This document shows, one piece after another, positions 1 to 36,590 of a DNA stretch of 64,000 bases. Under the pieces are notes generated by a model. It had not been told where the DNA came from. It saw nothing but the letters and a program-made list of their open reading frames with translations, and searched no databases. The position numbers were made by a program, and so were the translations under genes. The stretch spans positions 1,622,814 through 1,686,813 of the forward strand of contig MU004240.1 of NCBI GenBank assembly GCA_010405405.1, written 5' to 3'. Position 1 is the stretch's first letter, and every line of letters begins with the position of its first letter. Source of the stretch: Microthyrium microscopicum (lineage: Eukaryota).

Positions 1-3000
1 TTATATCCTTTCTTAAATATTAATTATTCTCTTATAGCCTAATTTAAGATATAGTATATTATAACTATTATCTTTAGTAGCTTTAAAATAACTACTATCT
101 AGTAAACTTTATCTTTCTTTATTAGAATCTTAAGTAGTACTACTTTTAGTATAGCTTCTAAATAAGTTAAGATATAATATATAATAAGATCTATTATCTA
201 GATATACTTTAATAATTTAGTAAAGAAATCTCTTTAAGTATATAGCATATAGTAAAGCTTCTTTTACTACGTACTAATTATTAGCGTACTACTAATAAAG
301 CTTAAGCTTACCTTAATCTAGGTAGAGATCTAGGCTATAACTATATCTTTAAGTATACTTAATATTAAGTAACGAGAATCCTTAAGTTAGTAGTTAATAA
401 GAAATTCTAGTACTACTTATTTATATGCCTTATTATATATATATACTAATACTAGACTAGTAGAGAGAATTAGTTTTACTTTATTAACTCTTAATAAAGG
501 TTTATAAGATAGGTAAAGCTCCTTATACTAATAGCGCTTTTTTAATAGATTAAGCTACTTCTCTTTCTCTTAATATAAGATCTCTTTTAAAGTTATAGTT
601 TTATCTTTTACTACTATATTAATAAATCTAGACTTTTCTCTACTAATTACTTTATTAAGGTAATATTTCTATATTCCTTATAGCATATTACTAAAATATA
701 GAGGTTTTAGCTATTTAGTTTATTATTTTAATCCTATTCTTATTATATTCCTAGCTATAAGGTTTACTACTATATCTACTAGTAGCGCCTTTACCCTTTA
801 TAATTTAGTTATATTAACTATTAATTAATATTTATTTAGTAAAGGTTTTATTAAAAGTTTATTAAGTAATTAGTATAGTAAGATCTACTTTATTATAGTA
901 AGATCTTAAGAATTTATTCTCTCTAGTACGTAAGTTAATCTATAAATAAAAGAAGCTTCTTCTTAGCTAAGCTTTCCTTCTCCTTAAGAGTAAGTCCTAT
1001 TTAGTATAAAGTTAATTACGTATAAATCTTCTAAGTCTTAGGCAAAGTCTATTTCTAAAGCTACGTTTAAACTAATAAGCGTAGTTAAACTCTTAATTTC
1101 TTTCTTATAGTCCTTTCTTCCTTTAAGTATTTTATTAAAGTCTATAATAATAGCATAGGTTAATATAAGTAATAAGTTCTTACGTCCTAGAGCTAATTTA
1201 TTTTAATACTATTAGGAAATATATAAATTAAATAAGTTTAAATATATAAGAATAGCCTTCTAGGATTTATTCCCTTTTAATACTACTTAAGTTAATCTTT
1301 ATACTAGTATTATTCTATCTTTAAAGTTAATATCTAGTCTAAATTTAAAACTTACCTACTTTCTAAAATCCTATAAAAAATCTTATAAGATCTAAGTTAT
1401 TATTAAAGAAATAAGTATAGTCTAGCTTTCTAAATTAATATTCCCTTCTCTACCTAAGTTACGTTATAATAATAAGTTTTAAAGAGCCTTAATTATTAAA
1501 GATCTCAAAATCTTTATTCTTCCTTAATACTTTAAATAATATATACTTACTACCTATATATAGTCTTATACTAATTTTTTAAGTTCTTTAAAGAGAAACT
1601 ATCCTTTCTCTTATAAGTTCTTTAAGCTAAACTATATAGTTTAAGTAGCCTTAAGCATAAGATATTTTGTATTAAGGTTATTAATTAACCCTAACATTAT
1701 TAGTATAGTAGTATCTATTAGATCTTACTAATCTAATAAGCTTAAATTATTTCTACGATCTATAATAGAAATATTACTTTTATAGTTTTATAATATTTTT
1801 AATTACTCTACTAAATCTATAATAGAATTAAGCAAAGAAGCTTAAGTAATTAAATCCTTTTACTAAGTAGATTTTTCCTTAGCTTCTAAAAATAATACGT
1901 TTAAACTAATAGTAATAAAGAATTACTTATTTTATATATTTAACTCTTCTTCTACTAAAGAAAAGATTAGAATTTATAACTAATCTCCTATCCCTTTTTT
2001 TCCTAATTCTTTAGGTAATAAAAAAAGTATATTTAAACTATTAATAATAAGTTCTAAGTAATATCTATATAAAAATACTTATCTAATAGATAAATACTAT
2101 ATATTACTTAGTCCTAGTATAAAGAGTTCCTAATATACTAAATTCTATAAAAGATTAAATATACTTAAACTTATAAGTAACGCCTCTAATAGATTAATAT
2201 AGAGCTAATCTTCTAGTATATATATAAAGTCTTAATAAGGATTTTATAATAAATCTTTATCTAACTCCTCTATAAGTATATCTTTTTTAGCTACGTTTAA
2301 AGAAATAAGAGTACTCCTAAGCCTAAAATTAATACTACTAAATTCTACTTTATAAAAAGATTCTCTAGTAACTAACTATATATAGCCTTCCTTTACTAGT
2401 TATTTACCCTAATTATAAAAAATAACTATTAGCTAGTTAATACTTAAGCTTTTTAGAAGCTTTATAGTTAAATATATTATAATTAACTTTTCTTATTACC
2501 TTATACGTTATAACTTTCTTTCTTCTTATCTATCTAAGCATATTCTAAGCTATACTAAAGACTCCTCTTTAAATAATAACTTACCTACGTTTAAATATAT
2601 TTTCTTAACTAGGCTTATTCTATTTAATATACTTAAATATATAAATAATAAATATTATTATAATTAGGCTTCCTAGCTAAGTAAAAAGTCTAAAGAAATT
2701 TACACTAAATAACTAAAGATTCCTTACGTTACTAAATTATTAGGGCAGTAGGCTTAAGTTATTATAAAGAAGAGGAATAAGTATAAGTAGTAGTTATATA
2801 AATTTATTAAATATTCTTAGTATACTATTTCTAAATAAGACTTATAATTATATATTTCCTTATAGTTAATATTATTAAGGTTAATATAATCTTTAGAACT
2901 AGTCTTTTACTTAATTTTCTTTTCTCTTCTAAACTTAAGACTACTAACGCCTATATACTTTATAATTATACTATATATTATACCTATAGTAAAAGTATAT

Positions 3001-6000
3001 TTTATAAATAAAGTATATATATAAGGCTCTATATATTTAAATACGCTAATAGTCTTTAAAGTATCTACTAGTAAAGTACTTTTAAAGGCTATTAAATAAC
3101 CTTTATTAGTATATCTTAAGTTAACTCTAAAGCGCTAATTAATAATGTCTTTATAGCTTTATAATCCTCTTTACTTAAGTTTTAGATTAAGACTTATTAA
3201 CAAACTTTATCTATAACTCTTATTAATTTCTTATTATCTACTAAGTAAGTATAATATTTAGTATTTAAGGCTAAGCTAATCTATTAAACTACTAATAAAA
3301 ATTATAAAAAGACTTCCTTTACTAATTTATAAATTAGGAAGATAAGTTTATCTACCTAAGGAAGTAAATCTCTTAAGGCGACTTATATCTTAGGCTTCTC
3401 TCTCTTTATCTTATTATAATAATAAGAATCTAAAATAACTTAATAATTCTTCTTATTAACTACTATAAAAAGCCTATACTTACTCTACTTTAGTATACTT
3501 ATACTTTTAAACTAATAAAAACTTAAAAGAATGCTATAGCAAACTATTTCTAAAATAAGATAGTATTAAACGCTATAAATAGTACTACTAATATTAAGAA
3601 TAACCTTTACTCTTATATTTAGAATAAATTAAGAGCTACTAATAAAAGTAATATATATTAGCTTAAACTTTTACTTCTTAAGACCTATCTTCTTAGCTAT
3701 ATAAATATTAATAAAGTTTATAATAAAGCCTTTATCTAAAAAAACTTTATATAAAATATATTCTTTTCTAACTAGTATAGTAATATATACCTAAGTATAG
3801 AAAATATATCTTAATACGTTAGTATCTAAGACTAAATAACTATATAAAGTATTCTTAGTAATAGCCTTTATTAATTACTTATTAATATCTATAAAGTTTA
3901 CTCTATATACTATATTTAAAGTATCTATCTAATCTTTCTTTACTATTAATATACAATAATTAGTATTAGCTAAGGTTACTTATAGAAAAGTTAAGCTTTA
4001 AATATGTCCCTTAGTAGTAAGAATTACCTTTTTAAGCTAAGTATTATATACTACTATTTACTCCTTTATCTAAGCTTTATTTTCTTATTAAATCTTATCT
4101 TTATAAGACTAAGTTATAAGAGAGATTACCTTATCTTACTATAATATTATACCTAGCTATTAAATAAAGTAAGAAGAGCAATTTATAATATCTTCTACTA
4201 TAATGCTATCTTCTAGGCTAATAAGATGCCTAAGTAAAATCTTAGTAATATTTATAAGGCCCTTCCTCTTTATTCCTTTAAAAGGTTAAAATTTTAAAAT
4301 CTTAGTACCTTTAAAGAACTTAAAATTATTATCTATATCTAAGTCCTAATTATCTAGTTAAGCCTAGGTTTTATAAAGGCGTAGATTTTTATCTTTATTA
4401 TTATTAATATTATATTAAGTATGTTTAACTATATTAGCTAAAGTAGTATTTTTAAATTCTATACCTTCTAACTATAAAGTTAACTTACTAGCTTTATTCT
4501 TATCCTAACTTAGACTAAAAGTATCTATACTATTAACGTACCTACGCTAAGTAAGCTCTTCCTAATCTTTATTATTAGTATTATAAAATCTATTCCTAAT
4601 CTTAGGTCTCTAAATGCTAAGATAATAATCTCTAATAACCTTATTTACTTCCTACTATAATACTTATACTACTACTATTATTAAAAGATTTATAAAAGTA
4701 GAATAGTTTAAAGAAAGTTACTACTATTAGCTATTAGGTTATTCTTTCTAATAGTAAATTAGATAGTTATTCCTTTTTATACCTAGTACGCTATAACTAA
4801 AGTAAGTTAATAATTAGTATTTATTAGTACTATAAGAATTATAATAACTTAATTAGTTCTAATTATCTAAATAGTTATAAGTATTACTAAAAGGTCTTAA
4901 CTAGCTAACTCTCTATAGCGTAAGTAAAGCTAATATTAAAGAATTTAAATCTCCCTAATACTATTATTTATTATTAGCTAGCTATATAGAATAGCTTCTA
5001 AGTCTTTATTAAGAATAAATTAGTTAATACTATTACTAAAGCTATATATATTCCTACTAGCCTCTTATCTAGTTAGGCTAACTACTCTAGTTATATAAAA
5101 GCTAAGAATTATTTATTTAGGTATTCTAATTATTCTAAGGATAATTTTATCTTAGCTATAATTATAAAGCTAAAGTTAATATTATTACTACCTATCTTAA
5201 CAAGTTAGCTAAATCTTAAATCTATAAGTTAGTACGTAATTAGTCTTTAGCCTTAACTTTTTTAAGTAAGTAAGCCTTATTAAAGACGTAAATAACAAAC
5301 TCTATAGCTTTCTTAAAGGTAATATTATAATACTTTACTTAGTTAAAGCAATAATTAACTATAATTATTTCTCTATAGTTATAAATTATATTAAAATAAA
5401 TATTCTAATTATATAACTTCCTAACAATATAAAAGAAATTATAAAACTTATTAATATAATTATTAATAGATATAGCTTCTCTAACTATAGTCTTAGCCTT
5501 CTCTAAGGTATTAAAAATTAGCATTTAATTTCATCTATCTATCTTAATAGTTAAGATTTATATAAAATTATTATATATATAGCCTTAAGCAATATTACGT
5601 ACTTAGTTCTATTCTTAGATAAGTAAAGTAAAGTTAGTAACTATAAGGCCTCTAGTAACCTTATTTTCTAAGTCTTTAATCTCTTTATTAAAACCTTAAT
5701 TAAAACTATTACTATAAAGCAAGATTTTAGCTAATTAATAATAACTACTAACATAAGCCTAAATATCTTAATTATAAAAGCTATTAAATTTATTAATTAG
5801 GATAGATCTAGTAAATAAATAAATTAAAAAATCTAGATTACTATACTAGCTTATAATATAGGCGCTACCTTAATCTCTTATAATAAAAGAAGTAGTAAAA
5901 GATTATTTATTAAATTTACTATCTAAAATAAATAATATAAATAATTATTTCTTCTTCCTAAGAGAAGAAACTAAAGAAGATTTTTTAAAGAATACTAGTA

Positions 6001-7510
6001 CTTTAACTTTAGTTAGTAGGCTAAAGTTCTACTTAAGGTAGTATAAAGTATACTATTAGTATTATTTATAAAAAGTTCTAAGAAAGCAAGTAGCCTTAAT
6101 TACTATAATACTAAAAAATAGAAACTTAAGTATATCTAATAAAATAGATATATAAAAGCCTTAGATTTCTATTAGTAATAATAATAAAATTTATAAAGGC
6201 CTTCTAAGTATAGTTACTAAGAGATTAACGTTTAATAAAGCTAATAATACTCTCTCTTAAATAAGAGTACTAGGTTAGAAGGGTAATAAATCTTATTAAT
6301 AGTTTTTAAACTATAGTTAATAACTTTAATCTAGGCTAAATAACTCTTCCTCTCTATTTATTCCTATATTACTTAGAATAATAAGCTAGCTATAGTAATA
6401 ATAAGAAGTAAGAAGTTTCTTAAGGCTAACTTTAAAAAGTAAAGTAGTATAATATTAAATTAAATTAATAAGTATAAAATAATATATATAAAAGTATAAT
6501 AGATAAAAGTAATAAAGATTAAGAGAAGAAAAAGTCCTTAAGGCCCCCTAATCTTAGCCTAGTAGTTATAGAGTAAAAGTATAAGCTAGTAAATAATCTA
6601 ATCTAAAGAAGTCTTATTTATAAGATGCTTCTAATAAAGAAGTTATAATAGTAGGCCTAAATTATAAAATAATAGCTTAGTAGTTAAACTTATATAAATT
6701 TAAAAATCTTGCCTACTAGCAATCTAATTATAGTATTATCTATAAGTTTAATAGTAACTTTATTCTAGCTAGAAAGTTAACTATAATATTAAAAATTATA
6801 CTACTTACTATAAATAACTAGTATATAGCTATATATCTTTATAGTATATAAGAACTATTATTTTGTATAGTAAGAACTACTCTAAAAGTATATAGTTAAA
6901 CTAATAGTAATAAGGGTACTAATATTTAGCTAGCTTAGTTGCTTTTTACTTTCTTATTATATTTTAATAGTTACTATATTCCTTATAGATAATTACTATC
7001 TATTAATTTAAATTTAATACTTTAAATACGCTTAATAGTTTAATAATACTTATAGCTATTTATTATTTTATATTAGCTACTATAAGCGTACTAGATTATT
7101 TAGATTTACTTTCTATTAGCTTATAGCTAGTATTTATTCTATATTAATTTATTATCTTTTAGATTACTTATTCGTTATTAGAGCTTATTATTTATTATCT
7201 AATTATATTACTTAATTATATAAGGTTTAGAAGGTCTATAGTTTAGCCCCTAATTTAATTATATATAAACCTCTAAACAAGCTAGCGCTTCTACTATATA
7301 TTTAAATATACGTTATAAAATCTAGAGGACAAGAAAATATAAATTAAATATAGAAGACGTACTCAATTTAGCTATATAATATATATCTTAATAATTAAAG
7401 TAAGTTAAGATCTTACCTATTCCTATGCCTTTAGACGTAGTCCGCGCCATTAGGTCTATGCAGTGCTAAGGACCATAGGTTAGTAATCTAGCTATCAGCG
7501 AGAGGTTACA
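1..7510 (-). mobile_element. RIP-inactivated Gypsy/Ty3-like LTR retrotransposon, truncated by the left window edge
   Basis: Very AT-rich, with CpA/TpG almost absent and TpA abundant (RIP signature), and no ORFs in the track. Minus-strand remnants read by hand, in order: a Gln/Asn-rich gag-like frame; a Zn-knuckle-like TYFSYSVLGIKRNNYL (de-RIP about TCFGCGVPGxKRNNCP) at ~4760-4805; a retropepsin-like VFLDKGFIINFINIYIAKKIGL at ~3680-3750; and an RT N-terminus-like segment (de-RIP WRDFF..TDLI.HHI...SNWA....KKG) at ~1-250. The element begins TGTAAC on the minus strand at 7510. Confidence 0.75.
7081..7510 (-). repeat. Putative 5' LTR (~430 bp)
   Basis: Starts TGTAAC (plus-strand gttaca at 7505-7510). 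A candidate RIPed other end reads GCTTATA (from GCTTACA) at 7081. RIP fades over the last ~80 bp. The partner LTR is outside the window, so the inner boundary is tentative. Confidence 0.4.
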
Positions 7511-30666: not shown

Positions 30667-31731
30667 TCATTCCTTTGGATACTTACCAAGCCCATCACAC
30701 AAACTCTGAATAAGTTGTTGATTATGAGCTTCTTCAGAAAAGCTCACTCGATCGGTCACCCATTGCAGCCATTCTTCAGCTCGAGCACCACTTTCAGCAT
30801 CTAGGAGACCTATAGCGACATCAAGCAACGTTGGTCGTTGGCTCCCTTCCCAGAATACATCAGCACCACAATCTCCACAGAAATGTCTAGTCGTTCCAGG
30901 TGAACTCTCATATGTCTTTGCAGTACCCAGTCTCATTCCTTGCTCATACTTTCGGCCATCTGGCAGTTCAATATTATCAGTTGGAACAAAAGTCCACTGT
31001 ACAATATCAAATCCAGAGATTAATCGACAACTCTTGCAAGCACAATGGCCAGCCAGATATCGTTTGCGGTCCTCTGACAGCCACCAAGAAACATTGCTAG
31101 GGTTTTCGGCGGATTTGCCAGAATTATATGGGACGAGGAGGTCAGGGAAGGGAGACTCAGCCAGGAGAGATTGCTCGTTAGGTCTGGTTATGCAGAACTC
31201 AACACCACGGCAGTGACAGTGGACATGTAGTTTGTTGTCAGTCGACTGGCAGCCTCGTTCTGAGGCTGAAGGACTGTCTCTCCAATCAAAAGGCGCAAGT
31301 TCGCTACCTATGTCCTTGAGATATTGCTTTGTCCGGTGTGCTCCGATCTCCTTGATCCAGATACTTGCCCCGCCGTCGACGGTTTCCGCGAGCCAGATAT
31401 GCCCCTGATGAGTAACGATGCCATTGGAGGATTGCAAAGTGCCGGTGGAGACTTCAAAGTGGCCATCATCGTTATGTTCTAGAAATAAATGCGCTCCACA
31501 ATTCGAGCAAAAGTGCCGTTTGATAGCCTCGGAGGATTTGTATGTGGATACACATTCTAGATTGGGAGAAGGGTTCTCGGGTGGAATTGGAACGTAGGAA
31601 GTTAGCAGCACACCAGAGATCCGTCGACAAGTATTGCAAGAGCAGAGATAGGCTTGAAGCGGCAGAGATTCTTTGGGCACAGTGAAGGAGTACTTGGATC
31701 CCCCGCAATGGCATGAGCATGTGAGGATCAT
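30667..31731 (-). CDS. Tandem GFA/CENP-V (Mss4-like) domain protein
   Basis: Two copies of CxCG...CxCxxCR...RxFCxxCG. Confidence 0.9.
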   Translation of the reverse strand: MILTCSCHCGGSKYSFTVPKESLPLQAYLCSCNTCRRISGVLLTSYVPIPPENPSPNLECVSTYKSSEAIKRHFCSNCGAHLFLEHNDDGHFEVSTGTLQSSNGIVTHQGHIWLAETVDGGASIWIKEIGAHRTKQYLKDIGSELAPFDWRDSPSASERGCQSTDNKLHVHCHCRGVEFCITRPNEQSLLAESPFPDLLVPYNSGKSAENPSNVSWWLSEDRKRYLAGHCACKSCRLISGFDIVQWTFVPTDNIELPDGRKYEQGMRLGTAKTYESSPGTTRHFCGDCGADVFWEGSQRPTLLDVAIGLLDAESGARAEEWLQWVTDRVSFSEEAHNQQLIQSLCDGLGKYPKE

Positions 31732-31829
31732 GTTGATGTGTTGCTGGGTTGATGCTCTGGTGATGTGTGTATGATTCGTTAAGAGCTCCAGACTGGAAGG
31801 AGGCAGCTACAGCATTGTAACATTGATCG

Positions 31830-31865: not shown

Positions 31866-32369
31866 CCGTTTGCTTGAGCAATTTGTGAAATAATACAATT
31901 TGATATGAGATTCATACAAACAACAGACAAAGGGTCATGTTTGGAGAAAACGTCCAGTGAAGCTTCCTTCTTTCTCATGAAATGCGGGGTCGATGTTTAC
32001 GAGCTTCAATCATTACACCCATAATCGAAAAGTGATGGTCGGCGACCCTCCCCCATGTATGTTGTGCTTTACATAATTCCACCAATCACACGTAAAATAG
32101 CCTGTGGCTTTGGGTGGTAGAAAATTAGGCTATTTCGTGCTATCTTATGAAGCGTTCTAAATATTAAAGTGGTATTCTATAATTAGTGTGCCAGAATTAG
32201 TGTTTTAGCTACTGTTTGAAAGCTCTTGATCTGAATATGTCCATTTGGACATCTCTTGACATTCTCTTACCTGTTTTGTATGCAAATCAATTGTTCTTAT
32301 CCCGTACTCTTATTATGGACCCTATTTAGTTAGAAATAGCTTAAATTGAAGTGGGATTAATCCTATCTC

Positions 32370-33400
32370 GACATAGACGCCATATTACGAACTATAGATA
32401 ATAAGCTATTATTAGAATACTTTAAATAAGCGAACCTATCTCTAGAATTGCTAAATCCATTAGTATTAGTAAATCTACTATACGTCTCTATTGCGCTCAT
32501 CTTAATTAAGTAACTGGCAAGTATATTAAGCGCCCTTATTATACCTTTAGTTACATTTTAGAGATATCTAACTCTATACGTAATTTTATACTAGAAATAC
32601 TAGTATAGAAGGGGACTCTCTACCTAGACGAAATGTCGTTATTACTATAGTAAGAGCTTAATGTAAGCTATGGTAACTAAGTAATTTAAAGAGAACTATA
32701 ACGCGTAAACTAGACGAAGAAGTAAGTACGTTAACTATATTACCTTATAATTCCTATACTAATCTAGCTTCTTCTAGGTTAAAGAGATTACTTAATAACG
32801 CTATAGCCTTTAACGAGACGTATATTTTGAACGTATAAGTATCTATACTTCTAAATAGCTAGTTTTTATAGATAAGAATAGTAGTAGTAAACTAAATACT
32901 TGCCATTAAATAGGATAAAGCCTATAGAGTATTATTATAGAGTCGTTTAAGCGATTAAATTACTTTAAAAGGAAGAACTTGCTGCTAGCTTATACTAGTA
33001 ATAGCCTTCTTACTAAGCTAATTTATAAGGTAAATATGAATTAAGATGGCTTTAAATAGTTCTTAAAGTATACTCTTCTACCTATTTATAGTGTTTACTC
33101 TACTTTGCATAGTGTTATTATTATAAATAACGCTTCTTTTTATTATAATAGACGAATTTAAGAGATTTACGACTTATAAAAAGTTAGATTAGAATATTTA
33201 CTACTATATTCCCTAGATCTTAATCTAATTAAAGCCTTTTTTAGTAATCTAAAGTCCTAACTAAAGTAGTATCGTCTTAACTTTAATAGAGGTTAAACCT
33301 ATAAAGAAAGGTTTTAACTTTTTATTAATATTTTTAAAGAAGAAGTTTATATGCTAGGAGAGGATAAATAGCGCGTAAAAGTATATTTTAGATATATTAA
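32370..33400 (+). pseudogene. RIPed DD34E transposase
   Basis: HTH-like EPISRIAKSISISKSTIR; LYLDEM; LVFID at 32859-32873; SVIIINNASF (de-RIP SVIIMDNASF, D at 33126); YLLLYSLDLNLIK (de-RIP YLPPYSPDLNPIE, E at 33231), giving 34 residues between D and E. Probable intron gtacgt...ctaat...tag at ~32726-32778. Confidence 0.9.
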
Positions 33401-33609
33401 ATAGCTATACTAAATACTTATATTTTTTTTAGAATTAAATTCCGTTATTTTATTATAGTAATCTTATAGTAATAAAGTTAAGTTTTGATAGTAGTTTTCT
33501 AGATTAGCTACTTTGTAGAATCTTAAGTTATATTTTGTTAGATTAAGATTATTTAGATAAGATAATATCCTATTTAGGTTTAGTGCTTACCTATCTAGGT
33601 TTAGCCTAT

Positions 33610-35370
33610 GTATAATCTTAAATTATAAGAGTAAGATTTACTTACACCTTATAATATTATCTCTTTAGACTTTAATTATTAACTATTTTAAACGCTATTT
33701 ATTATAAAAATAACTTAAAAGAACTAAATTATATCTTAAGGAAACCCGCAATATGTCTATCTATTAAAGAAGAGTATTCTTCTTATATTTAAACCTTATG
33801 CTACTACTCTTTAATAGTATCTTGTATTTTAATTAAAATAAATTTATTTATTATTAAATCCTAAGTATAAAACTAAATAATCTCTCTTTCTTAAAGATAA
33901 ATAGGGCATATAAAATGAATATATATAACAAAAATTACCTTTTTAATCGTAACTTTAAAAGGGTTAGTTCCTTAAACTTTACTACTAGTAAGCTTCTTTA
34001 CGATTTAAGGCTTAAATCTACTTAGCTCGTTAAAGATATTAGTATTAAGGTAGATCTTTAGATATAGGTAATTAATTATATCTATTATTAAAGTTAAAGT
34101 AGTATTAGATACCTCTATATAGTTATAAATTATAACTCTAGCTTTAGAACTAATAGAATTAATAGGTCCTAGTTAATAAACTTATTATTGTTAAATAATA
34201 TTATAAATAGCTATAAAGGAATGCGCGATATTAATATTTAGAGTTTAGCTAGCCTATTCTAAAGCCTAAAGAATAAGTAATTCCTTATCTATAAAGTAGT
34301 AGTAATGCGTATTATTAGTCTAGTAAGCCTTCTTTTTGTAATAAGGATAAGTATCGTATTTATAAGCGTACTTTATTATTAATTATTTGTATTTATTAAG
34401 CGCGTTATTATCTAGCTAATTATCTTCGTTAGTAGTGTTTTAGGAGGCATTTTGATTGCTAAGTAGGTTATTTTGGCTCGCTTTAATATTCTGATCCTAT
34501 AGTTCTCGCATTATTGTAGATACTAAAGTTCTAATAACGTTATTAGTTCTAATAGTAGTACTAGAAGCTTTAAAGGAAAGGATTAATATAAATATTAGCT
34601 TCTAATTCTAATAAGAAGTAAATTAGGAGTTAATCTTATTATTAAGAGGCCTGAATTAATTAAGTTCTTCTTCGTCGTCTTGTTATAGAGAGTATTTAAG
34701 TAAAGGGTAAGTAAATTCTAGTATAATCTTCCTTAAAATTGTTAACGTTAAAGAATATAGGATTAGGTCTAAAAAGATAGTATATATATACTATAGACGT
34801 CTCTTAATGGCAAAATGCTAATCTTAAAGGCGTATAATCTTCTTATAGGCTAAAAGGATAGTATTAAGGTTGTGAAAGAAGATGTAATTAAATTTACTCT
34901 TTAAGATAATGCCCTTTTCTTAATACTTTATAAAATATTTAACGATAATATTAAAGTCTTTAGGAATCTTAACTTTATCGTTTGCAGCGTTTTTAGCCTC
35001 TAATTAGTCTAATTCTATCTTATTAGATTTTATAGATTATAGTAGTAGGGACGTAGGTATTTAAGATTATAGAGGATTAATTTAAAGGCTTAAAGAACTT
35101 GACGGTAAGGGTAGAATATAATTATAGTTTAAGGGTGCTAACGTTACTAGTGTAGAAGATATAAAAGAGCTAATAGTAGTATTTGCTTTGGCTTTAGCTA
35201 AAGGCTTTTGAACGCGTCTACTAGCACGTTTTTAGAGGGCAGAATAAATAGAAGATTTAGCTTTATAACCTATATTAAGCGACGGTAAGGTTGAATTATA
35301 ATTAAATTTAATAAAGGAACGAGAAAGTTAAAGTAATAATAAAGTAGTAAGAATACGTACTTTACCATTA
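33610..35370 (-). pseudogene. RIPed second ORF of the transposon (~560 codons), function unknown
   Basis: One minus-strand frame reads as protein apart from TAA/TAG codons that RIP can explain: Ser/Pro-rich N-terminus, QDDEEEL, and a de-RIP Cys/His/Trp motif (C....C......CW.....H......L..WA) at ~34250-34375. Confidence 0.55.
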
Positions 35371-36338
35371 AGATAAATCATATATTTAGTATATTTAGCT
35401 TTAGTAAGAGCTGATATAACTTAGAAACAGCTGAGATAACTTAGAATAAGCATAGTAGAAGAGTAGATATTAATTATTTAGTAGACTAGAAGAAGCTAAC
35501 TATTATGGTTATTATAACATAACATAAATACCAAGATCTAGCATACTAACGCCTAAAACTAGCACTAAAAGATCTAGCGCCAAAAATAACCAGAGTTCTA
35601 TAGATTCTAGTTCTATAGGCTATTTTACGTGTGATTGGTGGAATCTGTGAAAATCTAGCAATTACTACATACAAGGGGGTGTCTGAGCGACCATCACTTT
35701 TCGATTATGGGTGTAATGCCCAGACCTTTTGACAGCTGCCAATCTGTGACAAAGATATTCTAGAAGCGATCGCCCAAAGCGCTTGTAACTCGTCTTCTTC
35801 CGCGGGATAATCAACTGTGGATCTTTTCTCTACCTCTCAGCTGATGTCCTCTCATGCAGTAGAGGCACCCAACGCCGCAAAGATTGATCCCAGAACCTCT
35901 TGAGCAAGTGAAAAAACAAGCAAGAATGCTAGACCAATCCTGTCCTTACGTACATCCCCTGTGGGGGATTGCGGACGTTTCAGTCAAGCAAGCAGGTCAT
36001 ATCTGCACCCCGCCAGCCAGGCTTTGACAGAGACGTCCTAGGGAAATATACTGGCCCCGGCGGCCCGTCGATCCTGGAGCAAGATTTCTTACGACGCCAA
36101 AGTTGCTCATGGGCTAGATGGAGGGCCTTACGCGGCTATAGCCGGGGCAATAGACCTCATCATTGGATCTTGGGAGGAGAATCCCAGGCCGTAACCGGCG
36201 AGCTGCAGACTCTAGGTGGGATAGTGGCCGAAGCTAGGGATATCGGATAGGCAGTTGGAAGCATTGGTCCAACAGAATGAGGGGCAAGTGTGGACGGGGG
36301 AGCGTTTGGAGTGGAGTGTTTGGAGGGAAAAGTAGTGG

Positions 36339-36464: not shown

Positions 36465-36590
36465 ATGGCTGAATGCACTTCCTGCAGCTGCGCTACCTGC
36501 CAATGCCCCGAGGGAGCATGCAAGTGCGACGTACGTTGACATGACGCTTCCTATGCAGTGATTATGTGCTCACATACCATACAGAAGTAA
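36465..36590 (+). CDS. Metallothionein, 23 aa (MAECTSCSCATCQCPEGACKCDK), likely Cu-binding; 2 exons
   Basis: caacATGG context; 7 Cys with three CxC pairs and no aromatic residues; intron 36531-36584 (gtacgt..gctcac..acag); last exon AAG TAA. Absent from the ORF track because it is too short. Confidence 0.88.

Follow-up and report, generated by a model that had tools for sequence, protein, structure and literature searches.

The 64,000-nucleotide stretch of Microthyrium microscopicum DNA analyzed here (assembly GCA_010405405.1, contig MU004240.1, positions 1,622,814 to 1,686,813 of the forward strand; hereafter the window) contains a 3,698-bp element at 32016-35713 that is flanked by TA duplications and holds the relics of two genes, an intron-split transposase and a second open reading frame, ORF2, on the opposite strand. 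The element is best explained as a copy of an autonomous two-gene Tc1/IS630-type (DD34E) DNA transposon inactivated by repeat-induced point mutation (RIP). Its features, in window coordinates, are the following.

32014..32015, no strand: left TA target-site duplication; a sister copy and other subfamilies likewise start with TA followed by CAC.
32016..32103, plus strand: left terminal inverted repeat (TIR); its outer 26 bp equal the right end and an inner 28-bp block is 100% complementary.
32315..32725, plus strand: transposase exon 1, 137 codons, the putative helix-turn-helix (HTH) part, a RIP relic that aligns in eight of eight genomic copies.
32726..32777, plus strand: putative 52-nt intron, GT...CTAAT...TTCTAG, judged from a frame change and conserved ends.
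32778..33404, plus strand: transposase exon 2 with the DDE_3 domain, from a Pfam match and copy alignment.
33729..35381, minus strand: ORF2 relic, 550 codons plus stop, from copy comparison and frame tests; it may begin at 35453.
33732..34079, minus strand: conserved C-terminal part of ORF2, in the position of the SAM-like domain of intact relatives (comparisons below significance, E 0.085 and E 0.18).
34215..34370, minus strand: Cys/His/Trp motif of ORF2, C-x4-C-x7-C-W-x5-H ... W ... P in the sister copy, a putative zinc-binding domain whose Cys residues are Tyr in the window copy.
35617..35713, minus strand: right TIR, from an inverted-repeat search and copy alignment.
35714..35715, no strand: right TA target-site duplication, read in the sequence and by copy comparison.

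The limits of the element are given by the sister copy, L002, which lies on another contig, has different flanks, and is 90.4% identical to the window copy in an ungapped alignment of 3,702 bases that runs from one TA to the other. The two copies share the TA and the element only, so the limits of the original prediction lie three flanking bases too far out at either end, the TIR arms at 32011-32091 and 35638-35718 being real; the real ends are TA followed by CACCC at 32014-32016 on the left and GGGTG followed by TA at 35713-35715 on the right, and the CAT/ATG flanks, absent from the sister copy, were ruled out as part of the TIRs. The TIRs are imperfect, 88-97 bp long, with their fully complementary block at 32076-32103 and 35617-35644, and both they and the TA duplication are as expected of the ITm/Tc1-like DD34E group. 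GC content is 0.21-0.35 inside the element versus about 0.47 in its surroundings, and the TpA/ApT RIP index is 1.4-2.0 inside and 0.5-0.9 outside, as is typical of mutated repeats. Between the window copy and the sister copy there are 354 transitions and 2 transversions; 197 of the 354 transitions stand in CpA context, and 259 have T or A on the window side. Differences number 18-44 per 250 bp and are evenly spread over both halves of the element, so the claim that ORF2 has been mutated to a degree similar to the rest holds. The window copy is RIP-inactivated and dead. Its ends (32016-32300 and 35450-35713) are far less RIP-mutated than the interior and have kept CpA.

The transposase relic amounts to about 346 codons, split by an intron-like 52-nt segment that occupies the same position, with conserved GT...AG, in all eight copies and was presumably spliced as an intron. 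HTH_23 was matched in the sister copy at E 2.4e-4, under the curated cut-off, and no HTH match was obtained with the window copy. Exon 2 matches DDE_3 with 29.9 bits in the window copy and 48.1 bits in the sister copy (cut-off 28.6), and the triad, at 32871, 33126, and 33231, has the D-D-34-E spacing of the ITm/Tc1-like DD34E group. This spacing is legible across copies alone, the window copy having N and K in place of the second D and the E, and with the DDE_3 scores it bears out the predicted DD34E transposase. The 3′ end of exon 2 is uncertain because its stop may be RIP-made.

ORF2 is convergent with the transposase, its coding part running on the minus strand from 35381 to 33732 (550 codons, or 574 from an in-frame ATG at 35453). 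The window copy contains 37 stops in this frame, which nevertheless has the lowest stop count of the six frames in eight of eight copies, in agreement with the opposite-strand relic that had been proposed. A DNA search of the genome gave 57 matches, corresponding to eight long elements in six subfamilies (about 70% identity) and to short derivatives, about 230 and 440 bp in length, in which the two ends are retained and the two genes are absent; these copy counts are lower bounds. ORF2 is found on the opposite strand in every one of the eight transposase-bearing copies, in a single alignment of 495-550 codons with 37-43% identity between subfamilies, and a protein search of the genome with ORF2 matched exactly the eight long elements. 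The six full-length copies measure 3,687-3,785 bp with ORF2 in the same position. No window-family copy with the transposase and without ORF2 was found among the eight transposase-bearing copies in the genome, and an inverted-repeat search around ORF2 gave no TIR pair of its own; ORF2 was part of the repeated unit, as had been claimed, and not a nested transposable element with its own ends.

The coding test on ORF2 used transversions, a change that RIP does not produce. In a DNA-only alignment (15 pairs, six subfamily representatives), codon phase is kept by 91-100% of aligned bases. Transversions at codon positions 3, 1, and 2 have frequencies of 0.252, 0.207, and 0.167 (7,746 codon pairs), and codons with a single transversion carry it at these positions in 1084, 726, and 486 cases, figures that are descriptive and have no P value because the pairs share ancestry. 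Conservation of one frame together with this coding pattern argues against both a nested insertion and recent cargo, and the constraint would have accrued while the subfamilies diverged, which is unexpected for passive cargo. In readings corrected for RIP, the N-terminus of ORF2 is basic and rich in Pro, Ser, and Thr. The Cys/His/Trp motif that the original prediction reported can be seen in the less mutated copies L002, L033, and L003, but not directly in the window copy, which reads Tyr at all three Cys and a stop at Trp. Pfam searches with the eight ORF2 relics produced three weak families, every one under the cut-off, and no HTH or DDE family match was found in the relics, where RIP lowers sensitivity, or in intact relatives. 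A metagenome scan with four ORF2 relics gave 591 pattern matches and no relatives, and contigs from sequencing runs showed mostly transitions, none of them spanning the element or containing an intact copy of the window family. One copy, L032 (G000:C12:980444-984818), is a mosaic: its transposase is nearest to L034/L035 (77-78%) and the 5′ part of its ORF2 to L033 (73% over 1.1 kb), which suggests recombination between subfamilies; it has an additional insertion of about 800 bp close to the ORF2 3′ end. Short derivatives of 230-440 bp with related ends (TA followed by CAC) cluster at or around full elements (L037:168-5366, L043), and some are inserted right at another element's end.

Two-gene relatives were found in metagenomes through the transposase. 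A search gave 77 proteins, the best 13 of which, aligned with two relics, led to 80 metagenome loci; the ranking of these loci reflects similarity to P0002 and not to the window. An inverted-repeat scan covered 45 of the 80 loci, the other 35 having been left out mostly for short flanks. At 10 of these 45, a TIR pair around a DD34E transposase encloses 3.2-3.6 kb, and all ten elements so delimited contain a convergent ORF2 or pieces of one, the tail-to-tail arrangement with a DDE_3 transposase inside TIRs that the original prediction had proposed to look for in other fungi. Because two related datasets supplied six of the ten, the number of independent lineages is about seven. Long ORF2 frames are open in L168, L144, and L150, which also have near-perfect TIRs; pieces of ORF2 are present in L184 and L183; and a RIP-damaged ORF2 of one type is present in L159, L162, L148, L167, and L176 (the last via an upstream piece alone). 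No enclosing TIR pair was found at threshold at 29 of the 45 scanned loci, which hence lie outside the count of ten, and the remaining loci comprise three elements of 1.4-1.6 kb, two longer ones with other contents, and one that is complex. The longer elements are L141:4345-9918, with frames that we take to resemble oleate hydratase, and L112:1-5310, whose arms overlap another frame, presumably nucleoside-phosphorylase-like.

The metagenome ORF2 proteins have a mutual identity of just 20-30% and were grouped by two blocks, one reading C-x3-4-C-x-N-x2-4-C-[WYF]...H...W...P and the other C-terminal and helical; in its broad form, the motif of the convergent ORF2s reads C-x3-4-C-x4-7-C-[WYF]...H...W...P. 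The intact proteins share a layout of basic disordered N-terminus, alpha/beta domain, Cys/His domain, Pro/Ser linker, and SAM-like helical domain. A database search with a profile of the motif returned 10 proteins, none named and none with a Pfam family, that are largely kin of the profile's own rows, and the intact ORF2s P0083 and P0085 used as queries found no match in the Microthyrium microscopicum genome.

Judging by the alignment of the motif, the window ORF2 and the ORF2s of the intact metagenome elements are probably members of one protein family. The best pairwise comparison, of window-family ORF2 with L168 ORF2, covers 58 columns at 34% identity with E 5.9e-4 and falls exactly on the motif; motif profile against motif profile gave E 0.0035, and a Cys/His-rich host protein used as a control gave E 0.58. 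In an alignment made by eye, the three Cys, the aromatic residue, the His, the Trp helix, and the Pro of L002 line up with those of the relatives. Several results weigh against common membership. The hhalign probability for window-family versus metagenome ORF2 is at most 29%; matches in the same region are weak with P0085 (E 0.02), a larger profile (E 0.055), and a three-sequence profile (E 0.2); comparisons with L150, P0084, and L183 miss the motif region; the motif His is missing in some relatives (P0085-P0088); the C-terminal parts of the window family and the relatives do not match significantly (E 0.085, E 0.18); and a HMMER profile of the RIP-damaged ORF2s found no match among 1.84 billion proteins. 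RIP turns Cys and His into Tyr and Trp into a stop and so removes just the residues that would score, and because of this bias the empty profile search is weak evidence of absence.

No Pfam family passes for the intact ORF2 relatives, and there is no Pfam SAM match among them. The C-terminal 90 residues of L168 ORF2 were modeled as five helices with a predicted local distance difference test score (pLDDT) of 85. Foldseek with this model returned SAM domains in the top seven rows (E 1.3-2.5), and the tankyrase SAM domain aligned over 62 of 63 residues with Z 6.3 and a root-mean-square deviation of 2.4. Against a SAM assignment, these matches are below significance (Foldseek E above 1, Z under 8), and Z values of 6.4-6.7, just as high, were obtained with three unrelated helical proteins. 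PDB sequence searches yielded nothing significant, with the ASK3 SAM domain at E 0.79. The hits, weak and consistent, suggest that the C-terminal domain of the intact relatives is SAM-like, and for the window ORF2 such a fold is suggested by position only. The model of the alpha/beta and Cys/His region of L168 has a mean pLDDT of 57, rising to about 80 over the motif, and gave no usable fold match (best Z 5.2); the ESM Atlas returned no result for any protein submitted. Cys/His clusters bind zinc, and the motif is a putative zinc-binding domain.

These observations make it very likely that ORF2 is not chance cargo and that it serves a fungal DD34E lineage as a dedicated accessory gene. The original prediction had left a choice between a dedicated accessory protein and captured cargo; the former is favored and the latter less so, on the basis of the frame and coding pattern across subfamilies and the same layout in metagenomes. 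We also lean toward reading the anatomy seen in the window as that of a transposon in which ORF2 serves specifically to aid transposition or the survival of the element. A Tc1-type transposase acts by binding the TIRs and by cut-and-paste insertion at TA, and it also mobilizes short derivatives without genes, such as those of the present genome; SAM domains commonly form head-to-tail polymers. In the mechanism that we put forward tentatively, the transposase would do ordinary cut-and-paste into TA, and ORF2 would be transcribed from the opposite end, toward the transposase. Its product would act in the nucleus, with the basic and zinc-binding parts contacting DNA or chromatin of the element itself and the SAM-like domain mediating self-assembly, and the element would thereby continue to be transcribed or remain within reach of the transposase. 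Functional analogies, both from other superfamilies, are VANC of Arabidopsis VANDAL elements, an anti-silencing accessory protein, and the Myb/SANT accessory protein encoded by PIF/Harbinger, each a second element-encoded protein serving its element; unlike the latter, ORF2 and its relatives have no Myb/SANT or other Pfam match. The three 1.4-1.6-kb metagenome DD34E elements, with TIRs 95-100% alike and no space for ORF2, count against a general need for a helper and indicate that DD34E elements can exist without ORF2. If cutting does not require ORF2, as they suggest, a catalytic role is less likely than a contextual one, in silencing, timing, or spread. The broadest form of the proposal, about which we are doubtful, is that a widespread two-gene fungal Tc1/IS630 lineage encodes a new protein family, combining a Cys/His zinc domain with a SAM-like domain, that binds the element, assembles into polymers along its length, and thereby escapes fungal silencing or steers the transposase, as a dedicated counter-defense or targeting factor in the ITm group.

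The main rival reading, which we consider unlikely, places ORF2 in the transposition reaction itself, as a transposase partner, a target-site selector, or a regulator limiting transposition. Two-protein cut-and-paste systems exist, such as that involving the second protein of PIF/Harbinger elements, and tight linkage (ORF2 in eight of eight copies) and a SAM-like domain suited to protein-protein contact agree with such a part; yet the short DD34E elements have well-matched TIRs and no space for ORF2, identity to L002 is lower in ORF2 (38-47%) than in the DDE exon (48-61%), a sign of faster divergence, and L032 pairs the transposase of one subfamily with the ORF2 N-terminus of another. A selfish maintenance role for ORF2, such as poison-antidote action, spore killing, or host manipulation, in which the gene spreads with the element and takes no part in cutting, is very unlikely. 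Fungal mobile elements can carry drive genes, and ORF2 diverges fast under coding constraint and is without a known domain, but no enzyme or toxin fold was found, there is a single extra gene per element, and elements in many separate samples carry it. We give equally little credence to capture of a host gene once by an ancestor, as a passive passenger whose likeness to the ORF2s of other elements would be due to chance. The cross-family match is statistically modest, and some DD34E elements (L112, L141) have other contents; on the other side, coding constraint accrued during subfamily divergence, no host paralogue was matched in the genome (a search of limited sensitivity), and position, strand, and motif are the same in unrelated samples. 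The chance that the second half consists of noncoding filler or of a separate, nested transposon is negligible, even though AT-rich RIP relics yield chance frames: no support was found for this reading, which was ruled out by the absence of an inner TIR pair, the constant position and near-constant length of 3,687-3,785 bp in six full-length copies, and the codon-phase and transversion tests.

Set beside known elements, the window element shares a TA duplication, TIRs, a DDE_3 domain, D-D-34-E, and, tentatively, an HTH part with fungal Tc1-like DD34E elements (ITm; DDE_3 PF13358), such as Ant1 of Aspergillus niger, and differs from them in its second conserved, convergent gene; with two genes, it departs from the canonical Tc1 layout of a single coding sequence. 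The window transposase, at about 346 codons, is near the 981-bp Ant1-like ORF (PMC3111232), Ant1 being compared by description and not by sequence. Tc1/mariner elements are the commonest DNA transposons of fungi (PMC5751038), ITm elements typically encode one transposase (PMC13469147), and fungal Tc1-mariner copies reach 3.9 kb, yet with a single ORF (PMC4112212). Closest in outline are Dici1 and Dici2 of Diutina catenulata, likewise fungal DD34E elements of about 4 kb with a TA duplication and extra coding sequences (CDSs) under selection; as described in the available text, they have three CDSs, namely a central transposase of 473-477 aa (432-478 aa for the group), a CDS1 of 143-146 aa, and a CDS3 that is a homeodomain-bearing transposase relic, and TIRs beginning CAGTCGGT (PMC13469147). 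The window element has two genes, a shorter, intron-split transposase, TIRs starting CACCC, and an ORF2 with a Cys/His motif and no indication of being a homeodomain-bearing transposase relic; gene count, transposase size, TIR start, and the lack of an HTH or DDE match in ORF2 rule out Dici membership as there described. The ciliate TBE and Tec elements, compared by description, also combine a DD34E transposase with extra ORFs under purifying selection, including a zinc-finger protein in TBE, and differ in their three ORFs, in their TIRs, which resemble telomeres in TBE and measure about 700 bp in Tec, in the tyrosine recombinase of Tec, and in their ciliate hosts (PMC7325037); the window element has neither three ORFs nor telomere-like or very long TIRs. 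The available portions of PMC5751038, PMC2836289, PMC3111232, PMC3441728, and PMC13004909 mention no second gene, and full-text literature searches turned up no description of the two-gene layout, a scope outside of which subscription papers, supplements, and Repbase may hold such consensus sequences. Within that scope, ORF2 is an undescribed accessory protein family in a fungal two-gene Tc1 element, multi-gene ITm elements as such being known.

A second gene under selection across many lineages would mean that Tc1 elements need or profit from an undescribed function. Tc1/mariner elements are textbook one-gene transposons, and ORF2 would explain the 3.2-4 kb length of many fungal Tc1 elements. 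The dead window copy adds evolutionary evidence and no working system; the open frames and near-perfect TIRs of L144, L150, and L168 make the function of ORF2 directly testable.

The same genome contains other long DDE_3 families. One of about 4.0 kb has ends of TA followed by CAGTG, members 74-89% alike (L044, L045, L084, L085, L089, L092, L097, L100, and L101), and space for a second gene; L044 and L045 gave no match to window-family ORF2 at E 1e-3. Another (L046, L086, L090, L095, and L098), of about 3.3 kb (4.4 kb in L090) and with ends of TA followed by CCTCTG, has a low-stop frame in its second half. A 1.6-kb element, L103:2593-4221 (G000:C5), has 37-bp TIRs that are 100% identical, normal GC, and a DDE_3 match without a stop, and is perhaps a one-gene Tc1 copy that escaped RIP. 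In the window itself, an intact minus-strand gene at 30667-31806, with a likely start about 280 bp from the left end of the element, contains two Cys/His-rich repeats that we take to resemble GFA/CENP-V domains. A further AT-rich block at 1-7500, with GC of about 0.21, probably consists of RIP-mutated repeats. On the other side of the element, at about 36465-36539 on the plus strand, lies a small Cys-rich reading frame, presumably a fungal metallothionein.

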